From assembly GCF_017348835.2 (NCBI RefSeq), contig NZ_CP071375.1: 64,000 nt of DNA; one strand, given 5' to 3'. The DNA is from Escherichia coli. Lineage in GTDB: Bacteria > Pseudomonadota > Gammaproteobacteria > Enterobacterales > Enterobacteriaceae. The position numbers were made by a program, and so were the translations under genes. Shown here one piece after another: positions 17,121 to 18,974 of the stretch. A model generated the notes under the pieces. The model did not search any database, had not been told where the DNA came from, and worked only from the letters and a program-made list of their open reading frames with translations. Within the stretch, counting starts at the first letter, position 1; each line of letters starts with the position of its first letter.

Positions 17121-18974
17121 TTACCTTTCCAGTCTTCTTGCTCCACGTTCAGAGAGACGTTCGCGTACTGCTGACCGTTGCTCGTTATTCAGCCTGGCAG
17201 TATGGTTACTGTCGTTTAGACGTTGTGGGCGGCTCTCCTGAACTTTCTCCCGAAAAACCTGACGTTGTTCAGGTGATGCTGATTGAACACGCTGGCGGGC
17301 GTTATCACGTTGCTGTTGGTTCAGTGGGCGCTGCTGTACTTTTTCCTTAAACACCTGGCGCTGCTCAGGCGAGGCGGACTGAATACGCTCACGCGCTGCG
17401 TCTCTTCGCTGCTGGATCTGTGAGTTAGTCTGCATTTTCTCGCGGACTGCCTGGCGCTGCTCAGGCGAGGCGGACTGAATGCGCTCACGCGCTGCCTCTC
17501 TTCGCTGCTGGTTGGGCGAGTTAGTCTGCATTTTCTCGCGAACTGCCTGGCGCTGCTCAGGAGAAGCTGACTGATAACGCTGACGAGCGGCGTCCTTTTG
17601 TTGCTGGGTCAGTGGTTGGCGACGGCTGAAGTCGCGGAAGTCGTCATAGCTCCCATAGTGTTCAGCTTCATTAAACCGCTGTGCCGCTGCCTGACGTTGG
17701 GTATCTCGTGTAATGACGGGTGCGGCGTGTGTTCGTTGTTGAAACTGCCTTGCTGCCGCCTGGCGCTGGCTGTCGCGCGTTGGGGCAGGTAGCTGCGTGG
17801 CACTCATTCCGCCGTTGACATCGGTTTGATGAAACCGCTTTGCTATATCCTGATCATGATAGGGCACACCATTACGGTAGTTTGGATTGTGCCGCCATGC
17901 CATATTCTTATCAGTAAGATGCTCACCAGTAATGCGGTTGAAATTGTTGACGTCGATATTGATGTTGTCGCCGTTGTGTTGCCAGCCATTACCGTCACGA
18001 TGACCGCCATCGTGGTGATTATAATCATCATCGTCATGATGATGATGGTCATGATCGTCGTCATCCCAGTCGATGCTGCTGAATAGTGCGTACGTGGTAG
18101 CAACGCCCATGCTATAGCCGAATCCGCGCACAAAGCTGTCAACAAACGGTTCTCCGGCTGGTGGTGGCAGATAAACCGGCGGATACGCAGTATTGGCCCA
18201 GTTCCCGTAAACCACGGTTGGGTTGTAGTTGGGAATATAGACCACATCAGGATTGGCGGGCTCAATGGAAATGACGGTTGTAGCAGGCTCTGTAATGACA
18301 GGGTTGGCAGTTGAAACGGTATTGGATGGTATGACGGGAGCCGTGACTGTCTGTTTTACCGGTACAGCTTTCTTCGTTGTGGTAATAACTTTCTGTTCGG
18401 TTGATGACTTCAGTGAACCGGTTTGTTGCGCCAGTTGCCGCAATCGCTGTACCGAGTCCATCACGTCCTGCGGCTGCGCCAGAAAAGCATCGCCCAGGTT
18501 TTGCACCCATTGCGGGTTTTCGCCCATCAACGCCATCAATTGTGGAAAGGCCACCAGTGATTTGACGCTAGCGTCCCACGGCTGGTCAGATACCGCCTGA
18601 ATAGCAGCATCGCCTTGTTTAAGTGGATTATCGTGCGACCATTGCACTGCTTGAGCAACGTTTGCCGGATAGGTTGATGCCATTAACACTTGTGAAAGCA
18701 GATAGTCGGGGTATAGCGCGACAGGTGCAACCCACTGGTCGATTTGTGCAGTGCTGAATGCGGATTTGACGACGGCGGGTGTTACGGGAGGTGCGGAAAC
18801 CGTTGCAGGAAGCGTAACCGCGGCAGCGTCAGACACAGCCAGTTGTGTCGATTGCGGTTCCACAGGCGCTTCCACTGTGCGGCTTTTTATATATAGCCCG
18901 GCAGAGGCGGCACAAAGCCCGGCACTGCAAATTAGCGCCAGCACATGGGGTTTAAACGGCAAAGTCATTTTCAT
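17121..18974 (-). CDS. yacH: secreted protein YacH (DUF3300 family), function unknown
   Basis: 617-aa ORF; signal peptide MKMTLPFKPHVLALICSAGLCAASA; His/Asp-rich tract; four C-terminal ~32-aa repeats. Confidence 0.85.
   Translation of the reverse strand: MKMTLPFKPHVLALICSAGLCAASAGLYIKSRTVEAPVEPQSTQLAVSDAAAVTLPATVSAPPVTPAVVKSAFSTAQIDQWVAPVALYPDYLLSQVLMASTYPANVAQAVQWSHDNPLKQGDAAIQAVSDQPWDASVKSLVAFPQLMALMGENPQWVQNLGDAFLAQPQDVMDSVQRLRQLAQQTGSLKSSTEQKVITTTKKAVPVKQTVTAPVIPSNTVSTANPVITEPATTVISIEPANPDVVYIPNYNPTVVYGNWANTAYPPVYLPPPAGEPFVDSFVRGFGYSMGVATTYALFSSIDWDDDDHDHHHHDDDDYNHHDGGHRDGNGWQHNGDNINIDVNNFNRITGEHLTDKNMAWRHNPNYRNGVPYHDQDIAKRFHQTDVNGGMSATQLPAPTRDSQRQAAARQFQQRTHAAPVITRDTQRQAAAQRFNEAEHYGSYDDFRDFSRRQPLTQQQKDAARQRYQSASPEQRQAVREKMQTNSPNQQRREAARERIQSASPEQRQAVREKMQTNSQIQQRRDAARERIQSASPEQRQVFKEKVQQRPLNQQQRDNARQRVQSASPEQRQVFREKVQESRPQRLNDSNHTARLNNEQRSAVRERLSERGARRLER
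17258..17641 (-). repeat. tandem 96-bp coding repeats (about 4 copies) in the 3' part of yacH
   Basis: cctggcgctgctcagg... unit recurs at 17354, 17450, 17546; encodes ERIQSASPEQRQAVREKMQTNS..QQRR repeats. Confidence 0.8.

Follow-up and report, generated by a model that had tools for sequence, protein, structure and literature searches.

The His/Asp-rich tract of Escherichia coli YacH, a DUF3300 protein, read as the expansion of a four-residue turn

The stretch of E. coli DNA analyzed here (the window, 64,000 nucleotides of contig NZ_CP071375.1) encodes on its minus strand the DUF3300 protein YacH, which carries a tract of 34 residues rich in histidine and aspartate. Comparison with homologs indicated that this tract is an Enterobacterales-specific insertion replacing a four-residue turn of an exported DUF3300 protein, and that it is conserved at the amino-acid level within Escherichia and in composition across the Enterobacterales. 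The most likely reading, which we hold tentatively, is that the tract is a flexible cation-binding, pH-responsive loop on an envelope-stress protein and that YacH is not a dedicated metallochaperone. The gene and its sequence are already in databases; the new point is that the tract can be read as a four-residue turn that has expanded under constraint.

A sequence-only reading of the window had placed a His/Asp-rich minus-strand peptide in yacH and suggested a role in metal handling. Translation gave exactly that peptide, as residues 304-337. The interval assigned to it, 18000-18085, takes in the first 22 residues of the tract (and LFSSIDW) and misses the rest. The gene, the tract and the elements on both sides of it are as follows.

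17121..18974, minus strand: yacH coding sequence, 617 amino acids plus stop, a DUF3300 protein (open reading frame list and translation).
18069..18128, minus strand: Gly-rich hydrophobic segment RGFGYSMGVATTYALFSSID, residues 283-302, corresponding to a family-wide GxxxG-rich segment ending in [D/N]W.
18066-18068, minus strand: anchor W303, directly after segment 283-302.
17964..18065, minus strand: His/Asp-rich tract DDDDHDHHHHDDDDYNHHDGGHRDGNGWQHNGDN, residues 304-337 (translation, composition and AlphaFold2, AF2).
17937..17963, minus strand: INIDVNNFN, residues 338-346, an alternating motif at which the loop closes; it is conserved in the family, whose representatives show it as (V/I)N(I/V)N(V)N.
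17859..17897, minus strand: family-conserved motif WRHNPNYRNGVPY, residues 360-372; across 129 sequences W360, H362, R367 and Y372 hardly vary, and the AF2 predicted local distance difference test score (pLDDT) is ~93.

The comparison drew on orthologs from ten enteric genera and from Bordetella, Cupriavidus, Ralstonia, Ensifer and Bradyrhizobium, on a further 120 non-enteric proteins, and on 150 representatives of the ~9,500 clusters, at 50% identity, that make up this very large family, for which there is no known function. DUF3300 is rarely mentioned in the literature, which likewise gives the function of the family as unknown (PMC4653623). Family-wide, the Gly-rich hydrophobic segment is followed in order by [D/N]-W, (V/I)N(I/V)N(V)N and WxHNPxHRxGVPY. 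Exactly four residues separated the Trp from the VNINVN motif in 34 of the 56 representatives in which both anchors were recognizable, giving a turn of the type G-[H/R/G]-[N/G]-D (GHND, GRGD or GGGD, for example), and most family members had 0-2 His there. Unlike these, YacH has 34 residues at this position, and in the Enterobacterales the position is occupied by 24-38 residues rich in D, H, G, Y and N. D/H-rich versions were found in Escherichia, Klebsiella, Raoultella, Kluyvera, Buttiauxella, Yokenella, Enterobacter, Scandinavium and Rahnella; the expansion is longest in Escherichia, and a WDDDD run directly follows the hydrophobic segment in all of the enterics. Sequences at the turn position in five of these lineages were:

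E. albertii: DDDDHDHHHHDDDDNHHHDGGHHDSNGWQHNGDN
Klebsiella: DDDDHHHHDDDYRHGDYSHNGDN
Kluyvera: DDDDDHHHHDDDYHDGGWHGGGNN
Yokenella: DDDDHYHGNGNWNGNGYNHNGDN
Rahnella (Yersiniaceae): DDDDHHHDDYDHHDDGHHGGSQNNY

Among non-enteric proteins there were 0-3 His in the whole segment (55 proteins in which the stretch could be delimited). His-rich sequence also occurs at the turn in a few unrelated metagenomic DUF3300 lineages (P0384, CDWHHHHVHVHVDHYRH; P0307; P0349). DUF3300 proteins at large do not have the tract, and metal handling therefore cannot be the core function of the family. As a separate observation, 18 of the 56 representatives, all non-enteric (P0256-P0369), carry Cys at the second position ahead of the anchor Trp (C[D/N]W), often followed by G-H-x-D, a possible conserved Cys/His/Asp cluster judging from these motifs; in the enterics this Cys is replaced by Ile or Leu.

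The tract contains 9 His and 12 Asp in its 34 residues and has a net charge (K+R-D-E) of -11. This composition is not due to chance: the probability of at least 21 H+D in 34 residues was ~7e-16 per window of that size for independent draws at average E. coli amino-acid frequencies, with the caveat that low-complexity tracts come from slippage and not from independent draws. In an AF2 model of YacH built from a 129-sequence alignment (mean pLDDT 71, predicted template modeling score, pTM, 0.58), pLDDT was 46-55 across the tract, beside confident flanks, and the tract is thus predicted to be intrinsically disordered. Sequence and fold searches of the PDB found no relative with a solved structure, and the only PDB sequences matching the tract were engineered tags, the His6 tag of 3i3v and the DYKDDDDK-His10 tag of 8w8q. 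Because these matches are FLAG/His tags, the tract should act as a handle for immobilized metal-affinity chromatography (IMAC). Such a match speaks for chemical capacity only and not for biological function. The chemistry of the tract suits the binding of divalent metals, and an in-vitro metal-affinity test would not discriminate among explanations, as any H4-H6 run binds IMAC resin.

NAY codons (GAY, CAY, AAY and TAY) account for 26 of the 34 codons of the tract, and Tandem Repeats Finder (TRF) detected a 9-bp periodicity in it. Of 120 E. coli allele clusters, 116 allowed the tract to be located; in these its length is 27-38 residues and it is in frame, with differences that are whole codons within the His/Asp runs; one of the alleles has a 7-residue deletion. 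In one reported Salmonella isolate, 8 bp are deleted within the tract (PMC10048834). Taken together, the NAY codons, the 9-bp period, the whole-codon length changes and the 8-bp Salmonella deletion show slippage to be the mechanism that generated the tract. A phase-variable contingency locus was considered separately and rejected, because the tract indels are whole codons.

As a codon repeat expanded by slippage, the tract may also be neutral filler that a surface turn tolerates, in which mutation among NAY codons keeps the D/H/N/Y composition and only the reading frame is selected. This explanation is unlikely in our judgment, although it ranks first among the alternatives to a selected cation-binding loop. 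The NAY content, the range of lengths in E. coli with its deletion allele, the predicted disorder and the Salmonella deletion all agree with it, as do the heavy turnover of sequence and length between genera and the fast evolution of YacH overall, which among the matches listed was 45-58% identical between genera, versus 92-97% for AcnB and Lpd. However, comparison of the tract with that of E. albertii gave 4 nonsynonymous differences over 87.7 sites and 5 synonymous ones over 14.3 sites, which corresponds to a ratio of nonsynonymous to synonymous rates (dN/dS) of 0.10 and differs from equal rates (Fisher p=0.002). In the same comparison dS was 0.90 gene-wide, and dN/dS was 0.105 for the whole gene and 0.02 for the helical domain described below. 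The dN/dS of ~0.1 indicates that the tract is constrained and is not junk. Furthermore, each of the 116 located E. coli clusters keeps 8-12 His and the pattern DDDD-H-D-Hn-Dn, and a D/H-rich loop has persisted since the split of the Yersiniaceae and the Enterobacteriaceae.

An open reading frame of 86 codons with a TTG start overlaps the tract on the opposite strand (17826..18086, plus strand). It was rejected as a gene, given the Pfam match and the dN/dS of 0.1 in the sense frame, and we read it as a mechanical by-product of GAT/CAT codon repeats seen from the other strand.

The remaining parts of the protein were assigned as follows.

18900..18974, minus strand: predicted Sec signal peptide, residues 1-25 (by inspection: n-region MKMTLPFKPH, h-region VLALICSAGLC of 11 residues, c-region AASA, then G).
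18405..18752, minus strand: all-helical conserved N-terminal part of the DUF3300 domain, residues 75-190 (AF2 pLDDT 90-98, dN/dS 0.02, many invariant columns).
17124..17774, minus strand: basic Gln/Arg-rich C-terminal tail, residues 401-617, net charge +19 (charge, composition, TRF and AF2).

The signal peptide claimed for YacH in the sequence-only reading agrees with this inspection. An export signal is plausible, since the n-region is basic, the h-region spans 11 residues and an AASA|G cleavage motif follows. The same region holds the most hydrophobic 19-mer of YacH and was modeled by AF2 as a helix at residues 9-26. Homologs outside the enterics have classic AXA signal peptides, with a lipobox in the Ralstonia homolog, and signal peptides in DUF3300 proteins have also been noted by others (PMC4653623). 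The second hydrophobic part of the protein, segment 283-302, was considered as a transmembrane helix, in which case the tract would be cytoplasmic. Such a helix is improbable in the enterics, in which the summed insertion free energy was +4.6 to +6.9 kcal/mol and therefore not transmembrane-like; in the AF2 model the segment is non-helical with a moderate pLDDT of ~73. We infer that the tract is probably periplasmic.

Elsewhere in the AF2 model there were a few strands at residues 194-250, a confident motif around residues 360-380, and helical hairpins in the tail at residues 457-580 (pLDDT 80-90). The tail contains a tandem repeat (17354-17594) with a period of 96 bp, or 32 residues, and 2.5 copies by TRF. 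It encodes ...QQRRxAARERIQSASPEQRQAVREKMQTNS..., with four SASPEQRQ motifs in the YacH of the window and 2-5 copies of SxSPEQRQ among E. coli alleles. These repeats were also considered as LTXXQ units of the CpxP/Spy type and were rejected as such, because Pfam gave no support and the only match was a weak pairwise resemblance to the LTXXQ motif of CpxP.

A more specific role was implied by the sequence-only reading: the tract would be a metal site, and YacH would serve Zn, Ni or Cu in the periplasm as a dedicated binding protein or metallochaperone. The density of His and Asp is of the kind found in ZnuA-type loops and His-rich tails, an export signal is present, and the tract is conserved within Escherichia. 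The genomic context runs the other way. The gene order is cueO-yacC-speE-speD-yacL-acnB-yacH-lpdA, so that cueO, which had been placed two genes from yacH, is separated from it by five genes in unrelated operons. The synteny that is conserved is with acnB and lpd: yacH lies between acnB and lpdA in all 9 enteric genera examined, with aceEF-lpd and acnB as neighbors. The lpd terminator, offered earlier as context for yacH, also proved irrelevant.

17080..17108, no strand assigned: apparent bidirectional intrinsic terminator hairpin between convergent lpd and yacH, its 11-bp stem lying between an A-run and a T-run.

The 56-nt terminator region folds at -18.9 kcal/mol (z=-2.6). The hairpin is shared by the two genes, and it has no bearing on the regulation of yacH because yacH and lpd are convergent.

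Regulation of yacH does not favor a dedicated metal protein either. Two features were recorded upstream of the gene.

18975..19329, no strand assigned: divergent yacH-acnB intergenic (promoter) region, 355 bp.
19113-19128, minus strand: GTAAA-N6-GTTAA direct repeat, CpxR-like half-sites with 1 mismatch; 0.03 expected by chance in the region.

Consensus scans of the 355-bp promoter for metal-regulator boxes gave matches at chance level only (mismatches for Fur 7/19, Zur 10/23, NikR 5/12, CueR 4/14, CusR 9/20 and ZntR 11/22), and no link to metals was found in the published literature on yacH. A CpxR site with the canonical N5 spacing was not present in the promoter; the direct repeat, with its 6-nt instead of 5-nt spacing, is consistent with the regulation by CpxR that has been reported for yacH, together with repression by protamine and cecropin A (PMC9600279). 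Other published data are that yacH expression was 16-fold lower in a rob deletion under butanol (PMC7537768), that ampicillin induces the yacH promoter (PMC8865558), and that a cathelicidin-derived peptide slightly induces yacH in UTI89 (PMC6737244). Published regulation thus points to envelope stress and cationic peptides. In addition, the His count of the tract is not conserved among genera, and no metal-binding domain was fused to DUF3300 in 52 long representatives. For these reasons a dedicated metallochaperone is improbable, and we rate it below the other alternatives weighed here against the cation-binding loop. In other words, the proposed metal role held up in part: the tract is real, its chemistry is suitable, it lies in an exported protein, it is under purifying selection and it is kept as far as Rahnella, but the promoter boxes, the metal-related neighbors and a family-wide tract that could have accompanied such a role were not found.

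The same published data bear on a further possibility, that the tract is an electrostatic module that might dock the protein's own basic tail, bridge anionic lipids through Mg or Ca, or capture cationic antimicrobial peptides, with His conferring pH-dependence. The charge of the tract (-11) versus that of the tail (+19) fits such a module, as does the position of WDDDD directly after a membrane-like hydrophobic segment in all of the enterics. So does the report that a yacH deletion survives better on protamine (PMC9600279), alongside the repression of yacH by protamine and cecropin A and its induction by the cathelicidin-derived peptide. On the other hand, the idea is one of analogy only, the AF2 model shows no confident contact between tract (pLDDT <55) and tail, and the protamine phenotype comes from a single study. 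We consider it an unlikely explanation, placed after neutral filler and before a dedicated metallochaperone.

DUF3300 genes are normally found with a partner. A DUF2950 (PF11453) gene lay directly downstream of the DUF3300 gene in 11 of 11 intact non-Escherichia loci among those listed, in a comparison of at least 13 related loci, and the pair has been described as universally co-localized (PMC4653623). This gene is absent from the window and from the E. coli and E. albertii loci, where in E. coli only ~70 bp (17051-17120) separates yacH from lpd, and a search of 5,426 complete E. coli genomes for DUF2950-like DNA gave no match. Escherichia has lost the DUF2950 partner. The Pfam hidden Markov model for DUF3300 (PF11737, gathering cut-off 25 bits) matched residues 75-333 of YacH over model positions 2-227 with 261.7 bits (E=6.8e-78), and none of the NCBIfam models matched. 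YacH is a genuine DUF3300 protein that differs from the family in two respects: its turn is expanded and it has no DUF2950 partner.

Fusions of DUF3300 to DUF2950 occurred in 3 of the 52 long representatives, and the other fused domains found were Peptidase_S74 and two single, compositionally biased matches. Peptidase_S74, the intramolecular chaperone of endosialidase and tail spikes, ends some non-enteric DUF3300 proteins after a Gly/Arg-rich tail (Bradyrhizobium, L017 3833-5515; P0149), which hints that the C-terminal region may trimerize and auto-cleave in those lineages. A long helix packs against a beta-sheet in an AF2 model of the Klebsiella DUF2950 protein (L001 6461-7264; pLDDT 80, pTM 0.73), and a Foldseek search with this model against the PDB returned only weak type IV pilin-like matches (E 0.1-0.4).

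The mechanism that we favor, as a cation-binding and pH-responsive loop, would run as follows. Slippage of NAY codons built the tract from a four-residue turn, and the tract is kept in frame and under purifying selection. The resulting loop would be a flexible, polyanionic, His-rich module able to chelate divalent cations reversibly, with His favoring Zn, Ni, Cu or Co and the Asp runs favoring Mg or Ca. Protonation of His near pH 6 would bring the net charge of the loop from ~-12 towards neutrality, and the change in charge or bound cation could modulate the conformation of YacH or its interactions, the +19 tail, anionic surfaces of the envelope and cationic peptides being possible partners. 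That the tract would bind cations, and that this would have a functional consequence, is what we infer.

Several points weigh against this loop. The number of His varies among genera, being 9-12 in Escherichia, 3-8 outside it and 3 in Yokenella and Enterobacter, and no fixed ligand geometry is apparent in the tract. No direct sign of metal binding or of a metal phenotype was found, nor any metal-regulator box in the consensus scans. The selection test rests on 9 substitutions and ignores indels, and mutation bias among NAY codons alone could keep the D/H/N/Y composition over the long term. Finally, the hydrophobic segment before the turn is borderline transmembrane-like in non-enteric homologs (+1.1 to +3.7 kcal/mol on the same scale), and if the segment spans the membrane, the loop at 304-337 would be cytoplasmic.

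A more elaborate scheme would make the D/H tract a selected periplasmic sensor of cations and protons in the Enterobacterales, from which cations would be displaced by cationic antimicrobial peptides as from the acidic patch of PhoQ and which would gate an envelope function of the DUF3300 fold. After the loss of DUF2950, Escherichia would have enlarged the tract and the basic repeat tail, turning a two-protein arrangement into a single self-regulated system. We offer this as a long shot. The probability left over after the cation-binding loop, the neutral filler, the electrostatic module and the dedicated metallochaperone is reserved for something not considered here. Should the tract turn out to be a genuine metal-binding site, the buffering of periplasmic metals in enterobacteria would gain one more minor component; the evidence so far does not place the tract in any metal pathway.

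All but one of 5,426 complete E. coli genomes had the yacH gene, and at least 80% of the gene was kept in 5,371 of these 5,425. The yacH DNA of the window was 100% identical to that of E. coli strain PE164, where it is annotated as 'DUF3300 domain-containing protein', and YacH alleles in E. coli ranged from 610 to 662 amino acids. The lineage of the window, judged from yacH and acnB (17121-21927), is a divergent E. coli (PE164-like, pig isolate) whose acnB was only 95-99% identical to that of almost all complete genomes. The yacH gene was more variable than acnB, with 80-95% identity in ~2,000 complete E. coli genomes. Two copies of the gene were found to be damaged. In E. coli E69 (L007 4001-6583) the frame breaks after residue ~370 and the match takes in ~700 bp extra, which suggests disruption by an insertion. 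The copy in Ralstonia solanacearum (L003 4797-5744), which likewise lies near acnB, is truncated beside a transposase gene.

Among known systems, the closest analogs in function are the acidic His-rich loop of ZnuA and the loops of Pseudomonas aeruginosa PA4063, which like the YacH tract are flexible, disordered, rich in D, E and H, and exported. The disordered periplasmic His-rich loops of PA4063 are reported to bind Zn with micromolar affinity (PMC8561739), and the ZnuA loop to bind Zn with modest affinity (papers cited in PMC3872050). However, ZnuA and PA4063 have a defined primary metal site, regulation by Zur and metal transporter genes as neighbors, none of which was found for YacH, and no sequence or fold relationship between them and YacH was detected. 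Measured against this class of His-rich metal loops, YacH agrees in composition and departs in regulation and genomic context. Engineered FLAG/His tags also match the tract in sequence, though these are artificial.

Handling of Ni and Zn by His-rich segments in the cytoplasm is known from the SlyD C-terminus, HypB, UreE and Hpn of Helicobacter pylori, and is tied to hydrogenase or urease maturation. By analogy, the YacH tract would resemble these tails in being low-complexity and His/Asp-rich, in its species-variable length and in a capacity for several metal ions; it differs from them in that YacH is exported and has no link to hydrogenase or urease. The periplasmic acidic patch of PhoQ (EDDDDAE) binds Mg and Ca as well as cationic peptides. 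PhoQ and YacH have in common a DDDD run near a membrane-proximal segment, a place among envelope proteins and a phenotype related to cationic peptides. In contrast to the tract, the PhoQ patch is not rich in His and forms part of a folded domain, the PAS-like sensor of a histidine kinase, and no homology between it and YacH was detected.

The DUF3300 family is itself among the closest known systems, and YacH has all of its conserved elements, from the helical domain and the [D/N]W anchor to VNINVN and WxHNPxHRxGVPY. Whereas members of the family usually have a short turn and are paired with DUF2950, Escherichia is without DUF2950 and carries, beside its expanded turn, a tail built of 32-residue tandem repeats.

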